Notes: generated by a model not told the origin, from the sequence alone. A DNA stretch of 64,000 nucleotides from an uncultured Gammaproteobacteria bacterium (GCA_963827615.1 CAWHCA010000003.1:13367-77366), one strand, 5' to 3'; shown: positions 13,513 through 45,959, counted from the stretch's first letter. A program made the numbers and translations.

Positions 13513-13589
13513 CCGGAGTTCCGGGGTAAAGACGGGCCTGCAATGACGGGTCCGATACCGATCAGTACCGAGCTGTGCAGAGGTGTGAG

Positions 13590-15626
13590 ATGAATCCAGT
13601 GCAGAACTTTTTAGGAATGACGGCAGTGGCCCTGCTGGTTGCCGGATGCGGTGGCGGGGGAGGCACGGCCGATGGCGGCGCGGCCTCGAACCCGCCGCCT
13701 GCGACCGGCTCGACCACGACCACGACGACGTTTGTCACCGGCGCGATCGCCGGCTTCGGCAGCGTCATCGTCAATGGCGTGCGTTACGACACGGACTCGG
13801 CGCAGGTCAGCATCGAGGACAAGCCGGCGACGGCGGGCGAGCTGAAGGTCGGTGAAGTCATTCACCTGACGGCAGAGGTCGATGCGCAGGGTGTCGCGCG
13901 CGCGAAGTCGATCCAGCAGGATCACCTGATCCAGGGCACCGTTCAGGCGCTGGACACGGTGGCGGGAACACTCACGATCGCCGGGCAGGTGGTCATCGTC
14001 GACAACGAGACCATGTTCGACGACTCGATCCCCACACGCTCGCTGGCCGGCATTGCGGTGGGCGACAGGATCGAGGTGCACGGCTTTGCGAGCGCCGGGG
14101 GCACGGCACGTGCGACTCGCATCGAGAAGGCAGGTGCGGGCGAGACCGAGGTCGAAGTGACCGGCGTGGTCAGCAACCTCGACACCGGCCTGAAGCGCTT
14201 CGACATCGGCACCCTCGTCGTCGACTACTCGGCGGCCACGCTCGAGGATTTCGGCTCGACGGGCCCTGCCGCCGGCAACCTTGTCGAGGTCAAGGGCACG
14301 TCGTTCCTGGCGGACGGCGCTTTGCGTGCCACGAAGGTGGAACGAGAGGGCCACAATTCTGACGGCCGCAGCGGCGACGACAGCGAAGTCGAGGGTCTCG
14401 TCACCCGGTTCGGTTCCGTGACGGACTTCGACGTCGCCGGCCAGAAGGTCATCACCAATTCCGCGACGATCTTCGTCAACGGCACTGCGACCGACCTGCA
14501 ACTCAACGTGAAGGTGGAAGTCGAAGGCAGGTTCGACTCGTCCAATGCGCTGGTTGCGGCCAAGGTCGCGTTCAAGCGGCAGTCGACGGCTCGCCTTGCG
14601 GCCATGGTCGAAAGTGTCGACGCGGCCGGCGGCAGTTTCCGCGCGCTGGGCGTGACTGTCGTGGTGTCCTCCACCACGCGCAAGGAGGACCACGAGAGCG
14701 ACGATCACTTCTTCAGCCTGGACGACCTCCGCGTCGGCGACTGGGTCGAAGTGGGCGGCTACGTCGATCCGGCCGGTACCGGCAAGCTGATCGCGACCCG
14801 GCTCGAGCGTGACGAACCGGAAGACGAAGTCGAACTGCGTGGCCCGGCGACCGACGTCGCAGCAACGAGCCTCAAGGTCCTGGGCGTCAGCGTCGAACTG
14901 CTGCCGGGCACCGAGTACGAGGACGAAGACACCCGAATCACCGCCAGCGAGTTCCTTGCGCGCGCGGTCGGCCAGACGGTCGAAGTCGATGGCAGCTGGA
15001 ACGGCACGTCGCTGCTCGCCGACAAGGCGGAGATCGAGCGTGAGGGCGGCGGTGTCGTCACACCTCCGGTCACGCCGCCGGTCACACCCCCGGTGACACC
15101 TCCGGTCACGCCGCCGGTGGGCGGCAACCAGCCGCCGGTTGCCAATGCGGGCACTCCGCGCAGCGTTACGACGGGCGCCACGGTCGCGCTCAATGGCACT
15201 GCCAGCACCGATCCGGAAGGCGCGGCACTCACTTATGCGTGGGTGCTGCAGGTTCCGGGCGGCAGCAAGGCGAGCCTGTCGAGCGCCACGAGCAGCCAGC
15301 CGAGTTTCGTAGCCGACGTCGCCGGGTCGTATACCGCGACGTTGACCGTGAGCGACGGTGCACTCACGTCGTCGGCCAGCGTTGCGATCACGGCGCAGGC
15401 GCCGACGCCGCCACCGCCGCCGTCACTCGACGGTGCGGCGCTCTATACGGCGAAGTGCCAGAGCTGCCACGGTGCGATCAAGCCGATCTTCAGCCGCAAC
15501 GCGCGTGACGCAGCGAGGATCCAGACTGCGATCGACAACAACAAGGGCGGCATGGGCTTCCTCTCGTCGCTGACCGCGGCCGAGGTGCAGGCCATTGCCG
15601 CGGCCGTCACGGCAGCGAATCCGTAA
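13590..15626 (+). CDS. Lipoprotein: DUF5666-like repeats + (TPPV)5 linker + PKD-like domain + C-terminal mono-haem cytochrome c domain
   Basis: The ATG at 13590 is preceded by GAGG, and the lipobox is LLVAGC. The PKD-like segment reads PVANAG...TVALNGTASTDPEG..LTYAW...GSYTATLTVSDG. The c-type haem motif CQSCH lies about 60 residues from the C-terminus. Confidence 0.7.
   Translation: MNPVQNFLGMTAVALLVAGCGGGGGTADGGAASNPPPATGSTTTTTTFVTGAIAGFGSVIVNGVRYDTDSAQVSIEDKPATAGELKVGEVIHLTAEVDAQGVARAKSIQQDHLIQGTVQALDTVAGTLTIAGQVVIVDNETMFDDSIPTRSLAGIAVGDRIEVHGFASAGGTARATRIEKAGAGETEVEVTGVVSNLDTGLKRFDIGTLVVDYSAATLEDFGSTGPAAGNLVEVKGTSFLADGALRATKVEREGHNSDGRSGDDSEVEGLVTRFGSVTDFDVAGQKVITNSATIFVNGTATDLQLNVKVEVEGRFDSSNALVAAKVAFKRQSTARLAAMVESVDAAGGSFRALGVTVVVSSTTRKEDHESDDHFFSLDDLRVGDWVEVGGYVDPAGTGKLIATRLERDEPEDEVELRGPATDVAATSLKVLGVSVELLPGTEYEDEDTRITASEFLARAVGQTVEVDGSWNGTSLLADKAEIEREGGGVVTPPVTPPVTPPVTPPVTPPVGGNQPPVANAGTPRSVTTGATVALNGTASTDPEGAALTYAWVLQVPGGSKASLSSATSSQPSFVADVAGSYTATLTVSDGALTSSASVAITAQAPTPPPPPSLDGAALYTAKCQSCHGAIKPIFSRNARDAARIQTAIDNNKGGMGFLSSLTAAEVQAIAAAVTAANP
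15060..15119 (+). repeat. Five tandem 12-nt units encoding (TPPV)5
   Basis: ACA CCT CCG GTC-type units were read directly. The synonymous third positions vary between units. Confidence 0.9.
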
Positions 15627-17270: not shown

Positions 17271-17410
17271 GGATGCGAAGTCCGAGGCATATGGTCGTCG
17301 CAAATCAGGCGTATGACAAAAAGTGTGTCGGGTAAGGTCCGAACTGCGTTTTGACAGAACCCGGCAGGCTGGGTGACTATCCCCGCCGCTGTGCGTTTGG
17401 AGCGCGACGA

Positions 17411-19636
17411 ATGGATTCCGAGTTCAAGTACCGCGCTTTCATAAGTTACAGTCACAGCGACGAGTCCTGGGCCAAGTGGCTGCACAAGTCGCTCGAGACG
17501 TACTCGGTGCCGAAGCGCCTCGTCGGCAGACAGACCGAGTTTGGCCCCGTGCCTGCACGATTCGCGCCGGTGTTTCGTGACCGGGACGAACTTGCGACGG
17601 CGACCAACCTGGGCGAGACCCTGACGCGAGCACTGGAGCAGTCTGCGTTCCAGGTGGTGATCTGTTCGCCGGCCGCCGCGAAGTCACGTTGGGTGAACGA
17701 GGAAATCCTCGCATTCAAGCGCCTGGGCCGCGAGCACCGGATTTTTTGTCTGATCGTAGGCGGTGAGCCGGGCGCGTCCCTTGTGGAAGCCACCACGGAG
17801 CAGGAGTGTTTCCCGAACGCGCTCATCTATACGATGGGTGCGGACGGACAACTCACCTCGACGCGCGGCGAGCCGATCGCCGCCGACGCCCGGCCACAGA
17901 AGGACAGTAAGCAGGACGTCCGGCTGAAGCTGGTCGCCGGGATGCTCGGCGTCGGTCTCGACGAGTTGAAGCAGCGCGAGGCCCACCGGCGGCAGCGGCG
18001 CATGATGGCGCTGGTCACTGCGTCCGTCGTCGGTATGGCGATCACCTCGGGCCTTGCCGCCGCCGCCTGGATCGCCCGCAACCAGGCCGAGCGCGAGCGC
18101 GTCCGCGCGGAGACCGAAGCCGAAACCGCCCGGCAGACCACGAACTTTCTCGTCGGCCTGTTCGCCGTCTCCGACCCGAACGAGGCTCGCGGCAACTCCA
18201 TCACCGCGCGCGAGATCCTCGACAAGGGCTCGCAGCGCATCAAGTCGGAATTGGTCACGCAGCCGGCGATCCAAGCCACGCTGATGGAGACCATGGGGAC
18301 GGTGTACACGAGCCTGGCGCTTTACCCTCCGGCTGCGTCGCTGCTCGACAGCGCACTGCAGAAGCGTCTCGAACTCTATGGCGCGGACAGCCTCGAGGTG
18401 GCGCAATCGGCGGAGAAGCTCGGCGGGGTGCTGACGCTGACCGCGGAGTACGACAAAGCGGAGTTGATGTACCGCAAGGCGCTGGGCTTGCGACAGCAAC
18501 AGCTCGGACCCGAGCACGTCGACATCGCGCGCAGCCAGTACCTGCTTGCCGATCTTCTCTCTCGCAAGGGCGAGTACGATGCGGCCGAGCCGTTGTTTCG
18601 CGAGTCGCTGGCGATGCGGCGCAAGTTGCTCGGCGGCAACACCGTCGAGGTGGCCAAGAGCCTCGAAGGGCTGGCGATGAATCTCTATAACCAGGGCAAA
18701 TACGACGAGGCCCTGCCCGCGATGCGACTTGCGGTTGAGTTGCAGAGGGGACTGCACCATGCGCCGCACACCGACCTGGCCGAGGCGCTGAGCAATCTCG
18801 GCCTGGTGCTGAGCGACATGGGTGAGTACGGCGAGTCTGAAAAGCTGTATCGGGAGTCGTTGCAGATGAAACGCGTCCTGCTGGGTGACACGCACCCGGA
18901 GATCGCGCTGGGCCTCAACAACATCGCATACGCTTTGACCGACCAGAAGAAATACGACGAGGCGGCGTCGATGTACCGTCAGGCCATAGCCATGCAGCAC
19001 AAGCTGCTCGGCGACGACCACCCGGACATTGCGGCCGCGCTGAACAACCTGGCATTCGTGCTGCACGACAAGGGCGATGCCGAGGGTGCCCGCAGGATGA
19101 TGCAGCAATCGCTCGACATGTACCGACGCACGGTCGGGTCCGAGCATCCGTCGATTGCCCGCGGCATGGGCAACCAGGCGATGTGGCTGATGCAGGCGGG
19201 TGATTACAAGTCGGCCGAACCTCTGTTGCGCGAGGCGCTGCAGATGCGCAGAAAGCTGCTCGGCAATGAGCACACGGACGTCGCCGGCACGCTGACGCTG
19301 CTCGCCAGTCTGCTGGTCGAGACCGGGCGGTTCGAGGAGGCGCGGGCGGCCGCCGCGGAAGCCCGGGCGATTTGCCTGCCCGCCCTGGGGGCGGCCCACT
19401 GGCGGACGGCGGCCGCCACCAGCACCGAAGGCGCGGCGTTGGTCGGTTTGGGGCAAACCGCGCAGGGTGCCAAGTTGTTGATCGAGGGGTTGGCCGCGCT
19501 GCGCGCCGACACGGGGGCATTGCCCTTTTTCCTGGACAACGCGACCCGCTGGGCTGAGGAATACAGCCGCAAGCGGACCGGCGCGCAGGATGCGGTCAAG
19601 CAAACTGCCATGTTGCTAGGCAACAAGGACCGCTGA
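17411..19636 (+). CDS. TIR domain - single TM - TPR repeat protein
   Basis: ATG at 17411. The N-terminal TIR signature is YRAFISYSHSDESWAKWL...FRDRDEL...VVICSPAAAKSRWVNEEILAF. One hydrophobic helix follows (MMALVTASVVGMAITSGLAAAAWIA), then about 9 TPR_12-like repeats (...YDEA...A..L...LG..HP..A..LNNLA...). Confidence 0.85.
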   Translation: MDSEFKYRAFISYSHSDESWAKWLHKSLETYSVPKRLVGRQTEFGPVPARFAPVFRDRDELATATNLGETLTRALEQSAFQVVICSPAAAKSRWVNEEILAFKRLGREHRIFCLIVGGEPGASLVEATTEQECFPNALIYTMGADGQLTSTRGEPIAADARPQKDSKQDVRLKLVAGMLGVGLDELKQREAHRRQRRMMALVTASVVGMAITSGLAAAAWIARNQAERERVRAETEAETARQTTNFLVGLFAVSDPNEARGNSITAREILDKGSQRIKSELVTQPAIQATLMETMGTVYTSLALYPPAASLLDSALQKRLELYGADSLEVAQSAEKLGGVLTLTAEYDKAELMYRKALGLRQQQLGPEHVDIARSQYLLADLLSRKGEYDAAEPLFRESLAMRRKLLGGNTVEVAKSLEGLAMNLYNQGKYDEALPAMRLAVELQRGLHHAPHTDLAEALSNLGLVLSDMGEYGESEKLYRESLQMKRVLLGDTHPEIALGLNNIAYALTDQKKYDEAASMYRQAIAMQHKLLGDDHPDIAAALNNLAFVLHDKGDAEGARRMMQQSLDMYRRTVGSEHPSIARGMGNQAMWLMQAGDYKSAEPLLREALQMRRKLLGNEHTDVAGTLTLLASLLVETGRFEEARAAAAEARAICLPALGAAHWRTAAATSTEGAALVGLGQTAQGAKLLIEGLAALRADTGALPFFLDNATRWAEEYSRKRTGAQDAVKQTAMLLGNKDR

Positions 19637-19742
19637 GAAACCGTTTTGGGCCAGGCCTTTCGTCACAATCCGATCGCGACGCTCTGCCCTCCCGGTTGAC
19701 ATAATCGTCCGGCCTCGGCCGCGGCAGTGCAAGCGACTGAAT

Positions 19743-19758
19743 TGTGATACGTTTCACA
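19743..19758. promoter_or_regulatory. CRP/CLP-type binding site candidate TGTGA-N6-TCACA
   Basis: TGTGATACGTTTCACA is an exact match to both half-sites of the CRP consensus core. It lies about 145 nt upstream of the first lectin gene start. Confidence 0.4.
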
Positions 19759-19895
19759 CATTCAAGACGCTTGCGCTCGGTCTGGCCTTGAAGCGCCGCC
19801 TGCAAGTCGAGCCGGCCGAGCAATTCGACTCGCTTTAAGAATAAGAAAGACACCGCAAGGGTCCCTGGCCTTGCGCGCACGCAGGAGTGAACAAG

Positions 19896-21380
19896 GTGGG
19901 TAAGGGAATCAGTCTGTTTGCCGGTCTGACCGCATTGTTTGCCATGGGTTCGGCGGGAGCGGCTTGTCCCGGCACGCCGACGCAGGCAGATACCAATCCG
20001 GAAACCGGGCACTATTTTGAGGTCTACGCGGCCACGGGCATCACCTGGGACGATGCCAAGGCGTGCGCCGATGCCAGCACCAGCAACGACATTCCCGGGC
20101 ACCTTGCGACCATTACGTCGTCCAGCGAGGACGAATGGGTCGATAGTTTGAGAAACAGCTCAGGGCTCGGCCAGGTCTGGGTTGGCGGTTACCAGGTGCC
20201 GGGCTCGACGGAGCCGGGTGGCGGGTGGCGTTGGGAAAACAACGAGGGCCCCTTTTCAGGCGTGAACAACGACCCCGGTCTGCCTGGATACACGAACTGG
20301 GCCGCTGCCGAGCCGAACAATGACGGGGGCGTCGAGAGCCACCTGACGCTTGGTCGGTACGGCCTGGGCGGCGGCTGGAACGACGAAGGCAGTGCTCTCG
20401 GTTCAATCGGCGGCTTCATCGTCGAGTACGATGTGCCGCGCACCGCCGAGTGCACTGTCGGTGTCGATTGCCAGACTATCAACGGCCAGACGCTGCAGTT
20501 TCCGCCGGGATCGTTCCAGGCCGGCGACAAGGTCAAGTTCACGGCCTATGAGTTCACGGATCCGCGCGTCGTCGCCGGCAAGTGCACGACACGTGGGCCA
20601 CTGACATTGTTCACGGATCCCGCCTTCGGATCCAATGCGCAGCTGAAGATTCCGCCGTACCTGTGCGGTTCGCCCAGGTTTGTCGTCGTCAAGGTGGACT
20701 CGAGCGATCTCGACATACTGAAGGGGACCGTGCTGGTCGAGAACCAGACCACTGAGGTGGTCCTGCCGACCAACCTGTACAAGTGCTTTGACCCGATCAT
20801 TGGCAGCGCGCTAGAGGGTGTGGATTCGCGGTGGAAAAAGGATCCGCAGTACCAGGACGTGGTCGTGTGGCAGTCCACCAACCCGCTCGACATGCTCGAA
20901 AATATGACCACGACTCCGCTCGACTTCGTTGGCGCTGCGACCGAAGCCACGAATGGATGTGGCAGTACCGTGGCGAAGGTCCGCGGCGCGTCCTATTTCA
21001 TCGTCGGCATGCACATCGATTTCGGCCCGGGCTACGAGTTGTCGTCCAACTCGCTGGCGAACTACGGCAAATTCGTGAGCCTGACCCGGTACAAGCTGAC
21101 GCTACTGCGCAAGTCTATTGTGGCGGCGAGGTCGGCGGGATCACTCAGACCGGCCGTCTCCACGGCGATGGACGCATTGATCGCGCTCGCGATCTACCGG
21201 CTCGACCGGGGCAATCCCGCGGGCGCGTTGGTCCAGGTCAGGCAGTTCCTCTGGCTCGCCAACGCGGCGACATACACGCCAATAGCTGGCGCCAACTACA
21301 ACGGTGATCATGTCATGCGCGGCGAGAACATTGCGTTCATGCTGCGGGTCAAGGTCATACCCTACCCGGTCGCGCCTTGA
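19896..21380 (+). CDS. Secreted C-type lectin domain protein, paralogue 1 (CTLD + ~300-aa Cys-rich domain of unknown function)
   Basis: The GTG at 19896 lies 8 nt after AGGAG; the ORF-track start at 19887 overlaps the RBS. It has a signal peptide. CTLD landmarks are GHLATITSSSEDEWV, VWVGG, WRWENNEGPF, NWAAAEPNNDGG (EPN) and GGGWNDEG (WND). Confidence 0.8.
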   Translation: MGKGISLFAGLTALFAMGSAGAACPGTPTQADTNPETGHYFEVYAATGITWDDAKACADASTSNDIPGHLATITSSSEDEWVDSLRNSSGLGQVWVGGYQVPGSTEPGGGWRWENNEGPFSGVNNDPGLPGYTNWAAAEPNNDGGVESHLTLGRYGLGGGWNDEGSALGSIGGFIVEYDVPRTAECTVGVDCQTINGQTLQFPPGSFQAGDKVKFTAYEFTDPRVVAGKCTTRGPLTLFTDPAFGSNAQLKIPPYLCGSPRFVVVKVDSSDLDILKGTVLVENQTTEVVLPTNLYKCFDPIIGSALEGVDSRWKKDPQYQDVVVWQSTNPLDMLENMTTTPLDFVGAATEATNGCGSTVAKVRGASYFIVGMHIDFGPGYELSSNSLANYGKFVSLTRYKLTLLRKSIVAARSAGSLRPAVSTAMDALIALAIYRLDRGNPAGALVQVRQFLWLANAATYTPIAGANYNGDHVMRGENIAFMLRVKVIPYPVAP

Positions 21381-21453
21381 ATGAGCCACGGACCGGGCAT
21401 GCGGCTCGCCGCAGTCCACGGTCCCTGGCCTTGCACGCACGAAGGAGTGGAGA

Positions 21454-23007
21454 ATGAATATGGACAAGGGAATCGGTCTATTTGTCGGCTTGGCAGCGGT
21501 GTTTGCCATGGGGTCCGCGCAGGCCGCGTGCCCCGGAACTCAGGTGCTGGTGTATTCGGACATCAATGACGCCACCGGCCACGTTTTCGAGGTTTACAGG
21601 GCGAACGGGATTTCCTGGGCCGACGCGGCGGACTGCGCCGACAACATCACCACCACCGGCGCCACGGGGCACCTCGCAACCATCACGTCATCCAGCGAGA
21701 ACCAGTGGGTCATCGACTCCCTGTTGATCCCTTCGCTGACCACGTCGGTAGAAGTTCCCTCGCCGCTGACGCAAAGCCAGGTCTGGGTGGGCGGTGTGCA
21801 AGACGCGTCGGCGACGGGAATCGGCGATGGCTGGCGTTGGGTGAATAGCGAAGGGCCGTTTTCCGGCACGAACAACAATCCCGCGATGCCGGGCTTCACC
21901 AATTGGGCCGGCAGCGAGCCGAACGATGGTGACGGTTTCGAGAACGGGCAAGAGAATCATTTGACGGTCGGCCGGTACCCCGGGAATTACTATGTCTGGA
22001 ACGACGAAGGTGCCGCTCCGGGCTCGATTGGTGGATTCATCGTCGAATACGACGTGCCGCGTACGGCCCAGTGTACCGTCGGTGTTAATTGCGAAACCAT
22101 CGACGGTCAGACGCTGGTTTTTCCGACTGGATCGTACACGACCGGCGACACGATCAAGTTCACGGCCTATGAATTCAACGATCCGCGCGTCGTCGCCGGC
22201 AAGTGCACGACGCGGGCGCCGCTGACGTTGTTCATGGATACTGCCGCTTTCGGGTCCAATGCGCAGCTGAGAATCCCACCGTACCTTTGCGGTTCCCCCA
22301 AGTTTGTCGTCGTCGCGGTGGACTCAAGTCAGCTCGACATCCTCAAGGGCACCGTGTTCGTCGAAAACCAGACGACCGAGAAGGTGCTGCCCAGTAACCT
22401 TTACAAGTGTTTTGACCCGATCCTCGGCAGCCTGCTGACGGGGGATTCGCGTTACTCCCCGGATCCGCAGTACCAGGACGTGGTCGTGTGGCAATCCACG
22501 AATCCCACAGGCATGCTCGAAAACGCGACCACGGCGCCGCCCGACTTCGTTGGCGCAGCGACTGAAGCCACGAACGGTTGCGGCAGCACCGTCGCGAAGG
22601 TCCGGGGTGCTTCCTACTTCGTGGTCGGCATGCACATCGACTTCGGTACAGGTTTCGAATATGCGACAAACCCGTTGCAGAACTATCAGCAGTTCGTCGC
22701 GTTGACCCAGTACAAGCTCTCGCTGCTACAGAAGTCCGTGGCCAATGCGCGATCGGTCGGCTCGGTGAAGAATCCGGACGGGCAGGCCATGGCCTCGCAG
22801 GTGAAGAACGCGATCAGCAAGCTCAACGCGGGTGATCCCGCCGGCGCGCTAACGTCGATCAACCAGTTCATCAACAAGGTGAATTCGTCCACGTACTACT
22901 TTCCCACGAGCGTGACGTTCAACTACAACGGCGATCACCTGATGCGCGGCGAGAACATCAGGTTCATGCTGCGGGTCAAGGTGATCCCCTACAAGCCAGT
23001 GCCTTAA
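21454..23007 (+). CDS. Secreted C-type lectin domain protein, paralogue 2
   Basis: Same architecture as paralogue 1: GHLATITSSSENQWV, VWVGG, WRWVNSEGPF, NWAGSEPNDGDG (EPN), YVWNDEG (WND). The 5' leader is duplicated too (GGTCCCTGGCCTTGC.CGCACG.AGGAGTG before both genes). Confidence 0.8.
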   Translation: MNMDKGIGLFVGLAAVFAMGSAQAACPGTQVLVYSDINDATGHVFEVYRANGISWADAADCADNITTTGATGHLATITSSSENQWVIDSLLIPSLTTSVEVPSPLTQSQVWVGGVQDASATGIGDGWRWVNSEGPFSGTNNNPAMPGFTNWAGSEPNDGDGFENGQENHLTVGRYPGNYYVWNDEGAAPGSIGGFIVEYDVPRTAQCTVGVNCETIDGQTLVFPTGSYTTGDTIKFTAYEFNDPRVVAGKCTTRAPLTLFMDTAAFGSNAQLRIPPYLCGSPKFVVVAVDSSQLDILKGTVFVENQTTEKVLPSNLYKCFDPILGSLLTGDSRYSPDPQYQDVVVWQSTNPTGMLENATTAPPDFVGAATEATNGCGSTVAKVRGASYFVVGMHIDFGTGFEYATNPLQNYQQFVALTQYKLSLLQKSVANARSVGSVKNPDGQAMASQVKNAISKLNAGDPAGALTSINQFINKVNSSTYYFPTSVTFNYNGDHLMRGENIRFMLRVKVIPYKPVP

Positions 23008-23016
23008 GTAGGCGCC

Positions 23017-23052
23017 AGACAAAGCCCGTGACTCGCGGCACGGGCTTTGTCT
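23017..23052 (+). terminator. Hairpin terminator after lectin paralogue 2
   Basis: AGACAAAGCCCGTG-(8 nt)-CACGGGCTTTGTCT is a perfect 14-bp stem. Only a weak T-tract follows. Confidence 0.55.
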
Positions 23053-23104
23053 ATCTGAAGGTCCGGTGTGCTGGGGCGGCTAGCCCCGGCGTACCGGCGC
23101 AGAC

Positions 23105-24298
23105 GTGATCGGCGGCCGGCTCGACAAGCGACTGTACGGCGCCATGTTCCTGATGGCCACGAGCGCCATCGGCCCCGGCTTCATCACCCAGACGACTCAG
23201 TTCACCGCCCAACTCGGCGCGGCCTTCGCTTTTGCGATCCTGGTCTCGATCCTCATCGACGTCGCGCTGCAGTTGAACGTGTGGCGCGTGATCGGCGTGT
23301 CGGGATTGCGGGCGCAGGAACTCGGGAATAGCGTAGCGCCGGGCGTCGGGCATGTGTTCACGGTCTTCGTGGTGCTCGGTGGTTTCGTCTTCAACGTCGG
23401 CAATATCGCGGGCGCCGGGCTTGGTCTCGAGGCGCTGCTGGGACTCGAGCCGAAGTGGGGCGGGGCGGCTTCGGCTTTGCTGGCGATCGCGGTCTTTTTG
23501 TCGCGCCGGGCCGGAGTCACGATGGACCGGATCGTCGTCGTGCTCGGCTTCGTCATGATCGCGCTGACAGCGTACGTGGCCTTCGTCTCCCAGCCTCCGC
23601 TCGGCGCCGCGCTGCGTAACGCGGTGCTGCCCGAGCGAGTCGACTTCCTCGCGATCACGACGCTGGTCGGTGGCACGGTGGGCGGCTACATCACTTATGC
23701 CGGCGCGCATCGGCTGCTCGACGCCGGTGTGCACGGTCCTGACCGTGTGGCGGAGATTTCCCGGGCCTCAGTTATCGGCGTGCTGGTGACCGGCCTGATG
23801 CGTGTCCTGCTGTTTCTCGCCGTGCTCGGCGTGGTCGCGGCAGGCGTGCGGCTGGATCCGTCCAACCCAGCCGCCTCTGCCTTCGAGGCGGCCGCCGGCG
23901 GAGTGGGCAGGCGCGTGTTCGGCCTGATCCTGTGGGCTGCCGCAATCACCTCGGTCATCGGTGCTTCGTACACGTCGGTGTCGTTCCTTGTCGGCGCGTC
24001 GGCGCGGCTTGCGCGACGCCGGAGCATTCTCGTAGTGGCTTTCGTCGGCCTGTCGGCAACCGTGTACCTGATGGCGGGTGCGGCGCCTGTGCCACTGCTG
24101 GTGTTCGCGGGTGCCTTCAATGGCCTGATCCTGCCGATCGGCATCGCCGTCCTGCTGTGGGTGGCGATCCGCCGGCCCTATCTAATGGGCGGTTACGCCT
24201 ATCCCCGTCACCTTGCTGCGTTGGGTTTCGTGGCATGGCTGGTCACGATCTACCTTGGCTGGGAATCGCTCGACAGGCTGGCGACGCTGTTCATTTAA
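23105..24298 (+). CDS. Nramp-related membrane transporter (divergent; lacks the canonical DPGN motif)
   Basis: 397 aa with about 11 TM segments. The N-terminal segment MATSAIGPGFITQTTQF resembles Nramp-family TM1. Confidence 0.55.
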   Translation: MIGGRLDKRLYGAMFLMATSAIGPGFITQTTQFTAQLGAAFAFAILVSILIDVALQLNVWRVIGVSGLRAQELGNSVAPGVGHVFTVFVVLGGFVFNVGNIAGAGLGLEALLGLEPKWGGAASALLAIAVFLSRRAGVTMDRIVVVLGFVMIALTAYVAFVSQPPLGAALRNAVLPERVDFLAITTLVGGTVGGYITYAGAHRLLDAGVHGPDRVAEISRASVIGVLVTGLMRVLLFLAVLGVVAAGVRLDPSNPAASAFEAAAGGVGRRVFGLILWAAAITSVIGASYTSVSFLVGASARLARRRSILVVAFVGLSATVYLMAGAAPVPLLVFAGAFNGLILPIGIAVLLWVAIRRPYLMGGYAYPRHLAALGFVAWLVTIYLGWESLDRLATLFI

Positions 24299-24385: not shown

Positions 24386-26188
24386 ATGGCGACCGCACCC
24401 GAGCACGCAGCGCCCGCTGAGACTCCCTTCACCGCCGGTCCGGACCGCCGGACGGGCGCGCGCAGCTACGCCGTTCCTTTCATCGTGGCCGTCACGGGCC
24501 ATCGCGACCTCGTCCCCGACGAGATTCCGATCATCCGGTCCCGCGTGCGCGACTGCCTGTTCAGCCTGCGCTACGAGTACCCCAGCCGCATCATCGTCGT
24601 GATGTCCTCGCTGGCCGACGGCGCGGACCGCCTCGTGGCGGAAGAGGCGTTGCAGCTCGGCATGCCGCTCAGCGTCGTCTTGCCGATGCCGCGGGTGATG
24701 TACGAGGAAGACTTCACGCCGGAGTCCCTCGAGCAGTTCGCGGAACTCTGCGACAAGGCCGCAGAGATCTTTGAACTGCCCCTGCTGCCGGGTGCGACGC
24801 CACGGTCCATCGCGGAAAGTGGGCCGAACCGCACCCGCCAGTATGCCCAGCTCGGCGTGTTCCTGAGCGCGCACTGCCACGTGCTGCTCGCGCTCTGGGA
24901 TGGCAAAGGCAGTGACCTTCTTGGCGGCACGGCGGCCACGATCCAGTTCCATCACCACGACGTGATGCCCGGCTACACGCCGCGCGTGACCTCGAGCAAG
25001 CTCAACCTGACCGAAGACGAGAGCGACCTCGTTTATCACATCGTCTGTTCGCGGGACCGGCCGGACGGCGAGCCTGCGCCCGGGTTGAAGCCCTTGGAGA
25101 CGTCATGGTTCACGACGGACGAGGAGAATCCGCGGACGGCCGAGATTTCCGCGCGGCACCGCAAGGTGTTCGAGTACACCAACGAGTTCAGCCGCGAAGC
25201 GCAGAACAACGCGGCCGCGATCGACAAGGAACGCTACTCGCTGTTGACCGGCGAGCAGGCAGCGACGTTGCCGGCCGGTCTCTGGGACATCAACCAGGCG
25301 TTCTGCGCGGCCGACTGGCTGGCCATCCACTACCAGAAGAAGGTCGTGAAGACGCTGCAGGGGGGCCACGTGGCAGCCTTCCTGACCGCCGTGGGCTACC
25401 TGACGTACACCGACCTGCTATCCACGCCGTTGATGATCGGCGGCATCATCTCGTTGATGCTTTTCGCCGTCGTGAACAACGCACTCGCGGTGCGCGGCAG
25501 CTGGCAACGCAAGTACCTCGACTATCGCACGCTGGCGGAAGGCCTGCGGGTCCAGTTCTACTGGGCTGCGGCCGGCGTCACCAGCGGCAGCGTTTCGAAG
25601 TACGCGCACGACAACTTCCTGCAGATGCAAGACACCGAGCTTGGCTGGATCCGCAACGTCATGCGCGTCGCCGGCATGGAGTGCGACGTGGCGCCAAACC
25701 TCGATCCGCATGGCGTGCAGTTCGCGGTGCAGGAGTGGATCGGCGACGACAAGTCCGGCCAGCTCGGTTATTACCGCAAGAAGTCCGCCCAGCGCATCGT
25801 CGAGCACGACTCCACGTTGCGCATCGGGCGGCTCGGGATCTGGACCACGATCATCGCGCTCACGACATTGCTGTTCGTTGGTTCGGCGCTATCGGACGAA
25901 GTGCGGACCCCGGTCGTCTACCTGATGGGTATCGTCATGCTGATGGTGGGCGTGCGGCAGGCGTACGCAAAGACCACGGCCGAGGCCGAACTGATCAAGC
26001 AGTACGAGTTCATGCATCGCATCTTCCGCAACGCGCGCAAGCGTATCGACGATGCCGACAACGACGGTGACAAGCGGCGTATCCTGAAGATCCTCGGGGA
26101 TGCCGCGCTGGAAGAACACGCGCAGTGGATCCTGATCCACCGCGAGCGGTCGATCGACGAGAAGGAGGGGATCAAGCTCGGCGGCTGA
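24386..26188 (+). CDS. SLOG-like (LOG/YpsA-type Rossmannoid) domain fused to two 2TM SLATT-like modules
   Basis: The N-terminal ~200 aa carry FIVAVTGHRDL, SSLADGADRLVAEEAL and a LOG-like glycine motif LLGGTAATIQF. Two hairpin TM pairs follow (about aa 335-380 and about aa 480-525). The second pair is preceded by GQLGYYRKKSAQRI, typical of SLATT/DUF4231-type modules. Confidence 0.6.
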   Translation: MATAPEHAAPAETPFTAGPDRRTGARSYAVPFIVAVTGHRDLVPDEIPIIRSRVRDCLFSLRYEYPSRIIVVMSSLADGADRLVAEEALQLGMPLSVVLPMPRVMYEEDFTPESLEQFAELCDKAAEIFELPLLPGATPRSIAESGPNRTRQYAQLGVFLSAHCHVLLALWDGKGSDLLGGTAATIQFHHHDVMPGYTPRVTSSKLNLTEDESDLVYHIVCSRDRPDGEPAPGLKPLETSWFTTDEENPRTAEISARHRKVFEYTNEFSREAQNNAAAIDKERYSLLTGEQAATLPAGLWDINQAFCAADWLAIHYQKKVVKTLQGGHVAAFLTAVGYLTYTDLLSTPLMIGGIISLMLFAVVNNALAVRGSWQRKYLDYRTLAEGLRVQFYWAAAGVTSGSVSKYAHDNFLQMQDTELGWIRNVMRVAGMECDVAPNLDPHGVQFAVQEWIGDDKSGQLGYYRKKSAQRIVEHDSTLRIGRLGIWTTIIALTTLLFVGSALSDEVRTPVVYLMGIVMLMVGVRQAYAKTTAEAELIKQYEFMHRIFRNARKRIDDADNDGDKRRILKILGDAALEEHAQWILIHRERSIDEKEGIKLGG

Positions 26189-27400
26189 TCAGTTCTTCTT
26201 CGGTGGCACCTTCGAATACTCGCCGCGCCCCTCGAGCACGGGATCCGTCGACAGGTTCCAGCCCAGGTTGCGCGCTTCGTTCGGGTCGACGGGTTCGCTC
26301 GAGATCCAGACGACGAGGCGCATGCCGTCGGTGATGTAGGGGTCGCCCGTGAGGTTGTAGCGCGGTTTTTCATGCGTGGCTTCGCCGACGCCGCGCACGA
26401 AGGCGAACCGGCTGACGGCGTCGTGGTGCAGCAGGCTGTGCAGCAGGTATTCGCGCGACTCGTCGATGACCGGGTCGATCACGTGCGTCGTCAGCGTGGG
26501 CGACTTCGTGGTCCCCTTGACGCCGATGTCGCGGCTGACCTGGCCGAACCAGACCGGACGGCCCTCGCTGCGGAAAGGGGCCAGCCACAGGCGCATGTGG
26601 TTGCGCTGGGCAATGGTCGCCCTGCCGCGCTGCAACGCGACGTCCTGCTTGCGGCCGAAGGCGTGCAGCGAGCTGACTGGAGCGGTCAGGAACGACTTTT
26701 CCGCAATTGCCGCGCCCACCATGCGCCGCACGCTGTCTGCGGTGATCGCCTCGGTGAAACTCCAGCCACTCGCGGCAAGTGCAGAGATGACTTCTTCGCC
26801 TGCGCCGACGATGACGACGTTGAGTGGATCGCCTTCGCCGTCACCGGCCGTGCTCGTCGTGCAGCACGGCAACTCCCGCAGTCGTGCGCGAAGCTCATCG
26901 GGCGCGAGATCCGGAAATTCGTTCACCTTCTCGTAGAGCGCCTTGAGCGACGATCGCTCGTAGTCGAAGCCCTCCGTGGGCAGCATCACGGCGAACCGCA
27001 TGCGGATGCCTCGCTGGTTGCCCGTCATGCGGATGTCGACGAAGCGGCCTCCACGCATGTGCGACGCATAGACGTAGCCTTCATTCGTGGACCTGGCCGC
27101 GGAGAAAAAGGGCAGGGCATGCTGGCGGAACCGGTCCGCGTGGGCGGCACGCTGGTCCTTCGGCACCTTCTTCAGCGTGACCAGCGCAACCTCGTCGGCC
27201 GAGTAGTAGTCGGGATCGATCGAGACCGGCAGCAACCAGTAATCGTGGTCACTGGTGTTTTCGATGCGCAGCCAGATCGGCTGGATGCCGGCTGCGGCCA
27301 GCGGCACGCCGAAGAATTTCGCTGCCTGTTCCTCGGTCGGGATCGCAAGATGGACGGTGACGCCGTCCTGCTGCAGTGTCCGCAGGCGTCCGAGATGCAA
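26189..27400 (-). CDS. LssY_C-domain protein (as called, from a TTG; the N-terminal signal peptide appears to be in another frame)
   Basis: The C-terminal half resembles the LssY C-terminal domain (GDPLNVVIVG...ALAASGW...RNHMRLW). A signal-peptide-like ORF start (ATG 27596, MTCWSWPRRASSATASVLAIAAVAL) joins this frame only after a 1-nt shift near 27515-27525. Confidence 0.6.
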   Translation of the reverse strand: MHLGRLRTLQQDGVTVHLAIPTEEQAAKFFGVPLAAAGIQPIWLRIENTSDHDYWLLPVSIDPDYYSADEVALVTLKKVPKDQRAAHADRFRQHALPFFSAARSTNEGYVYASHMRGGRFVDIRMTGNQRGIRMRFAVMLPTEGFDYERSSLKALYEKVNEFPDLAPDELRARLRELPCCTTSTAGDGEGDPLNVVIVGAGEEVISALAASGWSFTEAITADSVRRMVGAAIAEKSFLTAPVSSLHAFGRKQDVALQRGRATIAQRNHMRLWLAPFRSEGRPVWFGQVSRDIGVKGTTKSPTLTTHVIDPVIDESREYLLHSLLHHDAVSRFAFVRGVGEATHEKPRYNLTGDPYITDGMRLVVWISSEPVDPNEARNLGWNLSTDPVLEGRGEYSKVPPKKN

Positions 27401-45883: not shown

Positions 45884-45959
45884 TGGCGCTCCCAGAGGGA
45901 TTCGAACCCTCGTACCAGCCTTGAGAGGGCTGTGTCCTGGGCCTCTAGACGATGGGAGC
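45884..45959 (-). tRNA. tRNA-Glu (anticodon CUC), 76 nt with encoded CCA
   Basis: Folded by hand. The acceptor stem is GCTCCCA/TGGGAGC and the D-arm is GTCTAGAGGCCCAGGAC, identical to the E. coli tRNA-Glu D-arm. The anticodon stem is CAGCC/GGCTG with loop CTCTCAA (anticodon CTC). The T-arm is GAGGG-TTCGAAT-CCCTC, with discriminator G and CCA. Confidence 0.9.

Follow-up and report, generated by a model that had tools for sequence, protein, structure and literature searches.

Why should genes for secreted lectins adjoin, in an uncultured Gammaproteobacteria bacterium, a gene for a TIR protein anchored in the membrane? The locus lies in a 64,000-nucleotide stretch of DNA (GCA_963827615.1 CAWHCA010000003.1:13367-77366), hereafter the window, where two tandem genes for paralogous proteins with an N-terminal C-type lectin-like domain (CTLD) stand directly downstream of a gene for a TIR-transmembrane-TPR (TIR-TM-TPR) protein. 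An initial annotation of this DNA had proposed, as a speculation, that these neighbours form a recognition module and a signalling module. Judging from sequence and gene context, we consider it about an even bet (roughly 50%) that the lectins are exchangeable recognition subunits of a Thoeris-like TIR/SLOG-SLATT membrane cassette that senses outside the cytoplasm. The genes in question and their predicted parts are:

17351-19636, + strand: TIR-TM-TPR gene; probable true start at ATG 17411 (MDSEFKYRAF...)
TIR-TM-TPR open reading frame (ORF), residues ~25-160: TIR domain
Residues ~218-242: TM helix
Residues ~243-720: juxtamembrane region and TPR_12/TPR_10 repeats
19887-21380, + strand: paralogue 1 (copy 1) ORF, 497 amino acids; alternative start at GTG 19896
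19887-19961: signal peptide of copy 1
19962-20435: CTLD of copy 1, with EPN at 20310-20318 and WND at 20376-20384
20436-21041: Cys-rich beta domain of copy 1
21042-21377: four-helix, FIMAH-like bundle of copy 1
21454-23007, + strand: paralogue 2 (copy 2) ORF, 517 amino acids
21454-21525: signal peptide of copy 2
21526-22056: CTLD of copy 2, carrying a subfamily insertion, with EPN at 21916-21924 and WND at 21997-22005
22057-22662: beta domain of copy 2
22663-23004: helical bundle of copy 2, of another sequence type
24386-26188, + strand: recurrent third gene, 600 amino acids; N-terminal SLOG-superfamily fold and helical membrane region (SLATT-like)

The two lectin genes are tandem paralogues of secreted type, as initially annotated. 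Both ORFs lie on the + strand, their products align end to end with 66% identity over 514 columns (E = 0), and each carries a Sec-type signal peptide (..MGSAGA/ACPG in copy 1 and ..MGSAQA/ACPG in copy 2), so that both are predicted to be exported. Copy 1 likely starts at GTG 19896, 8 nt past AGGAG, because an identical database entry (P0001) has 494 amino acids, and copy 2 has a near-identical orthologue in P0013 (97-99% per domain).

The association with the TIR-TM-TPR gene is found far beyond the window. Scanning one genome per species gave 25 full-length loci from Steroidobacteraceae, Woeseiaceae and unclassified gammaproteobacterial metagenome-assembled genomes (MAGs), and a TIR-TM-TPR homologue (48-92% identity) is located directly upstream on the same strand in 25/25 of them, while the other neighbours vary. 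Co-occurrence in related genomes had been proposed as a check on the speculative link, and the neighbourhood is thus conserved. A set of 60 non-redundant loci from genomes and metagenomes included the contigs of those of 139 module-bearing representatives that have other heads, and 30 more metagenome loci that were identified with an alignment of the C-terminal module (the beta domain plus the helical bundle) only. Here, the TIR-TM-TPR gene adjoins the module gene in 47 loci, four of them with divergent orientation, which corresponds to 47 of the 49 informative loci; the 13 exceptions comprise 11 loci whose upstream sequence is shorter than 500 nt, one where it extends to 1.1 kb, and L030, the sole informative negative.

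The N-terminal head of these proteins is not always a lectin. Other heads found on the module are a DUF7948 domain with an SBBP beta-propeller, DUF6923 repeats, Lcl_C, a BNR-like domain, a lactonase-type propeller, and heads of unknown type. Since the linkage to TIR-TM-TPR holds with a DUF7948 plus SBBP propeller, a DUF6923, an Lcl_C or a BNR-like head, and also in divergent orientation, it is the constant beta-plus-helix module that TIR-TM-TPR keeps as its partner, while heads can be exchanged. The speculative link therefore stands as far as the adjacency is concerned (25/25 genomes, 47/49 informative loci), but it involves the C-terminal module and not the lectin head. In a mirror-tree test (n = 14), partial correlations with the TPR distances were higher for the beta and helical domains (r 0.38-0.49) than for the CTLD (0.16-0.31); this weak signal, corrected for phylogeny by TIR distance alone, fits docking via the module.

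In the TIR-TM-TPR protein, Pfam identifies TIR_2 (46.5 bits), ThsB_TIR (31.3 bits; cutoff 21.2) and TPR_12 (325 bits). Its SRWVNEE motif aligns in phmmer to the plant TIR catalytic-glutamate motif SxWCLxEL, with Glu118 as the catalytic-type glutamate, and S112, W114, N116, E117 and E118 are invariant in 30 sequences, comprising 19 orthologues and 11 partners of non-CTLD heads. Because the protein has one hydrophobic segment, with RRQRR on its N-terminal side, and no N-terminal signal peptide, the TIR domain is predicted to be cytoplasmic and the juxtamembrane and TPR region of ~500 residues to be periplasmic, where it would share a compartment with the exported lectins. Among the best 120 matches listed in a homologue search with the TIR-TM portion, close orthologues alone were found.

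The third gene begins 1.4 kb downstream of the lectin pair in the window and is present in 32 of the 60 module loci, where its position varies: it may precede TIR-TPR, follow the module gene or be convergent, and both orientations occur. In an AlphaFold2 model of its product (predicted local distance difference test (pLDDT) 78.5, predicted template modelling score (pTM) 0.81), the protein beyond an N-terminal alpha/beta domain consists of helices, at least four of which are hydrophobic. Foldseek matched it to ShosA (8zva, E = 1.9e-3), DprA (3uqz) and a molybdenum cofactor (Moco) carrier (2iz7) at probability 1.0 and to TM1055 (1rcu) at 0.99, and the N-terminal domain also matched TRPM N-termini (TRPM4). 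As modelled, this domain has a SLOG-superfamily Rossmannoid fold, given that the ShosA, DprA, Moco-carrier/LOG-like and TRPM matches have SLOG-superfamily folds (Burroughs et al. 2015). The window protein matched DUF4231 in Pfam at E = 0.34 and SLATT_3 in NCBIfam at E = 0.054; nine homologues gave DUF4231 in seven (best 0.033), SLATT_3 in three (4.3e-4), SLATT_1 in one (8.8e-9) and a YAcAr SLOG match at 0.05. The family has more than 3200 matches, almost uniform in length, and no recorded Pfam annotation.

One locus, L036, has the SLOG-SLATT gene with TIR-TPR but without the module. Its segment L036:11813-14841 is syntenic with the window and encodes SLOG-SLATT, TIR-TM-TPR, and then a PEP-CTERM protein of 200 amino acids in place of the head-module protein, which may be an alternative exported partner.

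In the mechanism that we propose for the cassette, the constant C-terminal module of the exported protein, comprising the helical bundle and a beta domain proposed to be disulfide-bonded, would dock on the periplasmic TPR region of the adjacent TIR-TM-TPR protein, and ligand capture by the head would alter the occupancy or the oligomeric state of the TPR region. Via the one TM helix, this change would reach the cytoplasmic TIR domain, which would then use up NAD+ or make an ADP-ribose-derived signal; the co-occurring SLOG-multi-TM (SLATT-like) protein would read this signal with its SLOG domain and alter membrane permeability. With the recognition subunit duplicated in this genome, two versions with differing lectin loops and helical-bundle types would be available. 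The trigger could equally be phage, a competitor, or the status of the envelope or its glycans.

Such a scheme has its closest functional analogy in Thoeris. Type VII Thoeris combines a TIR with the SLATT effector ThsH in a validated signalling design, SLOG is the signal sensor of the effector in type I, and types I to XI are regarded as sensors of infection within the cell (10.64898/2025.12.03.692087). The window shares with these systems a TIR domain with a catalytic-type glutamate near a membrane protein with a SLOG fold as candidate sensor and a weakly SLATT-like region, and a logic in which the TIR makes a signal that a SLOG/SLATT effector reads would fit the window cassette by analogy. 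In contrast to the described Thoeris TIRs, which work inside the cell, the window TIR is the predicted cytoplasmic end of a single-pass protein with a ~500-residue TPR region predicted to be periplasmic, and its gene is linked to that of a secreted head-module protein. The window cassette is also strongly conserved, lies outside a defence island, and has no PADLOC or NCBIfam Thoeris match.

C-type-lectin-fold sensors of the FGE/CLec kind are known from prokaryotic conflict systems, some of them diversified by diversity-generating retroelements (DGRs) (PMC7159879; PMC10907252). As in the window, a CTLD-superfamily fold serves there as a variable recognition element that is genetically coupled to TIR-type and other effectors. 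However, these sensors belong to the FGE-sulfatase/Mtd branch, lack an EPN/WND Ca2+ site, and are tied to cytoplasmic STAND/NTPase machinery, whereas the window CTLD is of the Ca2+ type and part of a separate exported protein, with no DGR or NTPase in the region examined.

Toll-like receptors (TLRs) offer an analogy of layout alone: they also combine extracytoplasmic solenoid repeats, one TM helix and a cytoplasmic TIR domain, and separate secreted pattern-recognition proteins, lectins included, aid in ligand recognition. The polarity in the window is reversed, with the TIR N-terminal and the repeats C-terminal, the repeats are TPRs and not leucine-rich repeats, and the bacterial TIR is probably enzymatic and not an adaptor scaffold, so that no homology is implied beyond the TIR domain itself. 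More tentatively, and as a possibility that we would not call probable, the system could be a bacterial counterpart of TLRs, in which a periplasmic TPR region and a catalytically competent TIR would use swappable secreted subunits (lectin, beta-propeller or other heads) to detect extracytoplasmic glycans or particles, for example of phage, of competitor cells or from envelope damage, and would pass a TIR-made nucleotide signal to SLOG-SLATT. The tandem copies would then represent a repertoire expansion that equips one receptor with two lectin specificities and two types of docking bundle.

If true, TIR signalling in bacteria would extend to extracytoplasmic sensing, with a prokaryotic parallel to the TLR layout, and the small system of three or four genes would provide a first functional context for canonical Ca2+-type CTLDs in bacteria, for the beta/FIMAH-like module, and for the abundant family of 600-residue SLOG-membrane proteins. 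The parts (CTLD, TIR, TPR, SLOG/SLATT) are of known kinds, but their arrangement appears to be new, and literature on FIMAH, bacterial CTLD/EPN proteins and membrane-anchored TIR-TPR proteins yielded no description of this pairing.

Several observations speak against a Thoeris-like cassette. The SLATT assignment is based on sub-threshold Pfam matches, the third gene is missing from the 10-kb flanks in 12 of the 25 genome loci, and the SLOG-SLATT-like family also occurs without TIR-TPR nearby (L037, L038), while L030, an informative locus, has the module without TIR-TPR. PADLOC and NCBIfam searches with all three proteins gave no defence model beyond generic TIR/TPR (the NCBIfam model ThcB4 scored 16 bits against a cutoff of 220), and the cassette is flanked by housekeeping genes and not by a defence island. 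No relatives were found on viral contigs in a scan of IMG/VR, which argues against a classical defence role. With ~50-92% identity across all loci, the conservation of TIR-TM-TPR looks more like that of a core signalling gene than of a fast-turnover immune gene. Finally, transcription of the lectin genes may be independent of that of the TIR gene, because the intergenic gap of 250 nt between them has its own regulatory palindrome.

These points leave room for other explanations, of which one takes the proteins for secreted or periplasmic lectins or adhesins that act on their own, for example by binding matrix or floc polysaccharide or by capturing nutrient glycans, and attributes the TIR adjacency, with no signal passing between the partners, to inherited synteny or common regulation in a single order of Gammaproteobacteria. 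The proteins are predicted to be exported with an intact EPN/WND site, a CRP/Clp-type site hints at regulation by carbon status, the intergenic region of 250 nt is separate, the flanks are housekeeping genes, and all relatives are related environmental Gammaproteobacteria (Steroidobacteraceae, Woeseiaceae), all of which would be in line with such a role. Yet the pair stays linked while all other flanking genes change, and the linkage outlasts head replacement, orientation flips and a decrease to ~30% module identity, as synteny alone rarely does; a simple adhesin would also have no evident use for the constant C-terminal module. We therefore consider this explanation improbable. A second explanation is a structural envelope complex: here, the periplasmic TPR region would be the anchor or chaperone by which head-module proteins are tethered or assembled at the inner membrane, while the TIR domain would be an oligomerisation scaffold that makes no second messenger. 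TPR domains often serve as docking or chaperone platforms, and the housekeeping-like conservation of TIR-TM-TPR and the many loci from which the SLOG-SLATT gene is missing would both fit such a complex. A pure scaffold would not be expected to keep the catalytic-type glutamate and its motif invariant in all 30 TIR-TM-TPR sequences, however, and the recurrent SLOG-fold partner suggests nucleotide-derived signalling, which makes this an unlikely alternative to the signalling cassette.

The module itself might also be the active part, in a secreted effector or enzyme (a toxin or a glycan-active protein) that is targeted by its head and has a catalytic beta domain, with TIR-TM-TPR as a regulator or immunity-like partner. 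The invariant polar residues E222, D225, Q321, D324, Q329, E353, H475 and R478, together with H376 and D378 (at least 90% conserved), could form an active or metal site, and variable targeting heads on a constant module recall polymorphic effectors. Against this, Pfam, NCBIfam, PDB sequence and Foldseek searches revealed neither an enzyme nor a toxin family, there are no linked genes for a secretion system, and dN/dS is low and uniform, and we regard such an effector as quite unlikely. The TIR/SLOG-SLATT cassette with exchangeable extracytoplasmic heads remains our preferred reading of the locus.

As for the heads in the window, both copies indeed carry the series of landmarks that had been described for them (GHLATITSS, VWVGG, WRW.N.EGP, NWA..EPN and WNDEG). 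A search with the Pfam Lectin_C model (PF00059; gathering threshold 22.6 bits), one of the checks suggested at the outset, gave a sub-threshold score of 20.3 bits for copy 1 and no match for copy 2, but the full-length homologues P0030 and P0032 pass at 31.6 and 30.3 bits. A profile of the family, built from 56 homologues that are 50-90% identical to copy 1, matches 61 solved animal CTLDs in the PDB at E <= 0.01, with the EPN motif, the downstream glutamate and WND aligned; the best matches are mosGCTL-1 (1.5e-6) and CEL-I (2.6e-6). Structure prediction, the other half of that check, did recover the fold: in an AlphaFold2 model of copy 1 based on the 56-member alignment (pLDDT 82.6, pTM 0.74), residues 28-183 form the double-loop alpha/beta fold of CTLDs, with pLDDT mostly 63-94, and Foldseek matched them to lithostathine, CL-K1 and collectin-11 (1qdd, 4yli, 9srk) at probability 1.0, with TM-scores relative to the target of 0.70-0.78 and a root-mean-square deviation of 2.7-2.8 A. 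By profile and model, the N-terminal domains have a genuine CTLD fold.

The putative binding site is strongly conserved, as E142, P143, N144, E150, W164, N165 and D166 are invariant across the 56 homologues. The EPN-x5-E spacing of copy 1 matches that of mannose-binding protein A (MBP-A; E185/N187/E193/N205/D206), and the loop from EPN to the glutamate is longer in copy 2 than in copy 1. An extra segment that had been noticed in copy 2, IDSLLIPSLTTSVEVPSPLTQSQ, is a subfamily-wide insertion that is also present in P0013, P0016, P0019, P0044 and others. In contrast, residues other than cysteine occupy the canonical positions C2, C3 and C4 (ESHLTL, WNDEGSA and FIVEYD in the alignment), and the canonical disulfides C1-C4 and C2-C3 are missing. 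C27 and C60 are the only cysteines within the CTLD, and because they are gained and lost together across the family, this pair appears to replace the canonical disulfides. The description of the domains as canonical animal-type CTLDs thus applies to the fold, the family profile and the EPN/E/WND set, but not to the disulfides, and both copies are below the threshold in Pfam.

Compared with animal CTLDs of the collectin/MBP type (CL-K1/collectin-11, MBP-A, SP-D, CEL-I, mosGCTL-1), the window copies share the fold, the predicted secretion, the EPN motif, WND and the glutamate between them, whose spacing from EPN is like that of MBP in copy 1 but exceeds it in copy 2. They differ in the absence of the C1-C4 and C2-C3 disulfides, in auxiliary Ca2+-site-1 residues that, judging by sequence, are not conserved, in the bacterial host, and in the fusion of the CTLD to a beta domain and a bundle unknown in animal lectins. 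The CTLD is probably Ca2+- and sugar-competent and of a bacterial, disulfide-poor variety, and its EPN motif predicts binding of sugars of the mannose, glucose, N-acetylglucosamine or fucose type. Because a plasmid database search gave CTLD-only matches alone, in Clostridioides and Planctomycetes proteins, the lectin family is not obviously mobile.

The C-terminal region had been described as a Cys-rich domain of ~300 residues that belongs to no recognised family. Its cysteines are indeed conserved, with C189, C195, C233, C260, C300 and C358 of the beta domain invariant in the 56-sequence alignment, and in the most distant members four of the six are still invariant, with C233 and C260 conserved at 90% or more; this pattern is consistent with an oxidising, extracytoplasmic location. 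The region is not one domain, however. The AlphaFold2 model of copy 1 divides it into a beta-rich domain (residues 185-377) and a four-helix bundle (residues 389-490, pLDDT 91-98), and on the evidence of model and homologues we interpret it as a novel beta domain followed by a FIMAH-like helical bundle. The beta domain remains without relatives, as it had no match in Pfam, NCBIfam, PDB sequence, PDB fold (Foldseek) or BFVD; the candidates that Foldseek returned from PDB and BFVD were not credible (a GH92 multidomain protein at probability 0.41 and CBM51-INT at 0.06).

For the bundle, FIMAH is a candidate family, as homologues P0034 and P0072 pass the Pfam FIMAH threshold (PF22888; 24.8 bits) with 27.1 and 25.7 bits, while P0092 (19.9 bits) and P0007 (12.8 bits) fail. 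The AlphaFold2 helical bundle falls at the same segment, but the C-terminal regions of both window copies have no Pfam FIMAH match themselves, and in Foldseek the bundle gave weak PMEI/invertase-inhibitor-like matches alone. At least three sequence types of the bundle exist across the family. A literature search yielded no established FIMAH function, only unrelated fimA-H papers. An exhaustive phmmer search with residues 184-497 against 1.84 billion cluster representatives gave 139 proteins.

The copies do not differ in the way that had been assumed, namely most in the lectin domain and little in the C-terminal region. For each domain, identity, the ratio of nonsynonymous to synonymous substitution rates (dN/dS) and the synonymous rate (dS) between copy 1 and copy 2 are:

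CTLD: 62% amino acid identity, dN/dS 0.21, dS 1.44
Beta domain: 80.5% amino acid identity, dN/dS 0.19, dS 0.65
Helical bundle: 52.7% amino acid identity, dN/dS 0.41, dS 1.02

The bundle is thus the most divergent part, down to 39% identity at residues 408-466, and similarity within the C-terminal region is not uniform. The per-domain dN/dS that had been called for is between 0.19 and 0.41 in every domain, indicating that both copies are under purifying selection throughout. Since dS is unequal between domains, the copies seem to be mosaics or partly gene-converted, and further support for mosaicism comes from the homologues P0014 and P0016, which join a copy-2-like CTLD to a copy-1-like bundle. 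The tandem duplication is special to this genome, as all 25 reference genomes have a single copy. Some of these are copy-1-like (L001) and others copy-2-like (L002), and the window therefore holds two old alleles in tandem. One contig with a copy-2-like gene (L039:1-1628, P0018) stops 98 nt upstream of the gene, which would fit the assembly break expected if that genome has a tandem pair too.

The regulatory features of the lectin genes are as follows:

19743-19758: CRP/Clp-type palindrome TGTGATACGTTTCACA, ~150 nt upstream of the copy 1 start
19854-19875, + strand: inverted repeat CGCAAGG-N8-CCTTGCG in the leader, immediately 5' to the Shine-Dalgarno sequence of copy 1
19860-19889, + strand: duplicated 30-nt leader with Shine-Dalgarno AGGAG, copy 1 version
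21420-21449, + strand: duplicated leader, copy 2 version, without the 5' arm of the inverted repeat and without its own CRP site

The CRP-type site had already been recognised in the initial annotation, and TGTGATACGTTTCACA is the sole exact TGTGA-N6-TCACA in the 64-kb window (five matches with at most one mismatch vs. 1.07 expected). Because it recurs upstream of orthologues in other genomes, exactly in the equivalent intergenic region of five loci (L002, L003, L014, L015, L023) and with one mismatch in seven (L001, L006, L008, L009, L011, L012, L024), at a distance of 66-170 nt from the gene, the palindrome can be regarded as a conserved regulatory element on comparative grounds. The inverted repeat could be an operator or an RNA hairpin; since its GCAA/TTGC core does not vary among 13 orthologous leaders and there is almost no covariation, an RNA structure is not favoured, and it may be a DNA operator rather than a hairpin.

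The duplication took in the 5' leader, as had been noted, and the 30-nt leaders with the Shine-Dalgarno sequence are 28/30 identical, more than the coding DNA (71.5%). The copy 2 leader retains the 3' arm of the inverted repeat alone, so the duplication breakpoint is inside this repeat. As no terminator-like site was found between the two copies, copy 2 is likely co-transcribed with copy 1 under the CRP/Clp-type site. A sigma-70 promoter scan of 19500-23200 gave no match. Directly past the TIR-TPR stop codon, TTGACATAAT is located at 19697-19706, and like strings (TTGACATAA, TTTAACATAA) occur at the same position in the intergenic regions of L004, L018 and L019; this type of string may be the extended -10 promoter of the lectin gene.

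In loci from long-read MAGs (L017, L018, L021-L025), frameshifts were observed in the TIR-TPR, lectin and SLOG-SLATT genes, and these are probably assembly errors rather than pseudogenes. Swapped N-terminal domains in L022-L025 were considered and ruled out, as L022 has a frameshifted CTLD (NPVTGHYYQ.., EPNDN, GWNDEG).

The wider neighbourhood contains further genes. An Nramp-like transporter gene (23105-24298, + strand) lies between the lectin pair and the SLOG-SLATT gene and is probably not part of the cassette, because it was found in the closest relatives alone. Past the SLOG-SLATT gene, a protein with an LssY_C domain (E = 2e-45) is encoded at 26189-27400 on the - strand, and in the relative L028 an LssY_C gene precedes PLDc_2 genes and a polysaccharide pyruvyl-transferase/glycosyltransferase cluster. 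An Rfam scan of the window gave one tRNA as the sole match (45887-45959, - strand). Upstream of TIR-TM-TPR, the gene at 13575-15626 (+ strand) encodes a lipoprotein-like protein of 683 amino acids with six DUF5666 repeats, a (PPVT)n linker, a PKD domain and a C-terminal cytochrome-c domain, and this gene occurs as a tandem duplicate in the relatives L002, L003 and L024.

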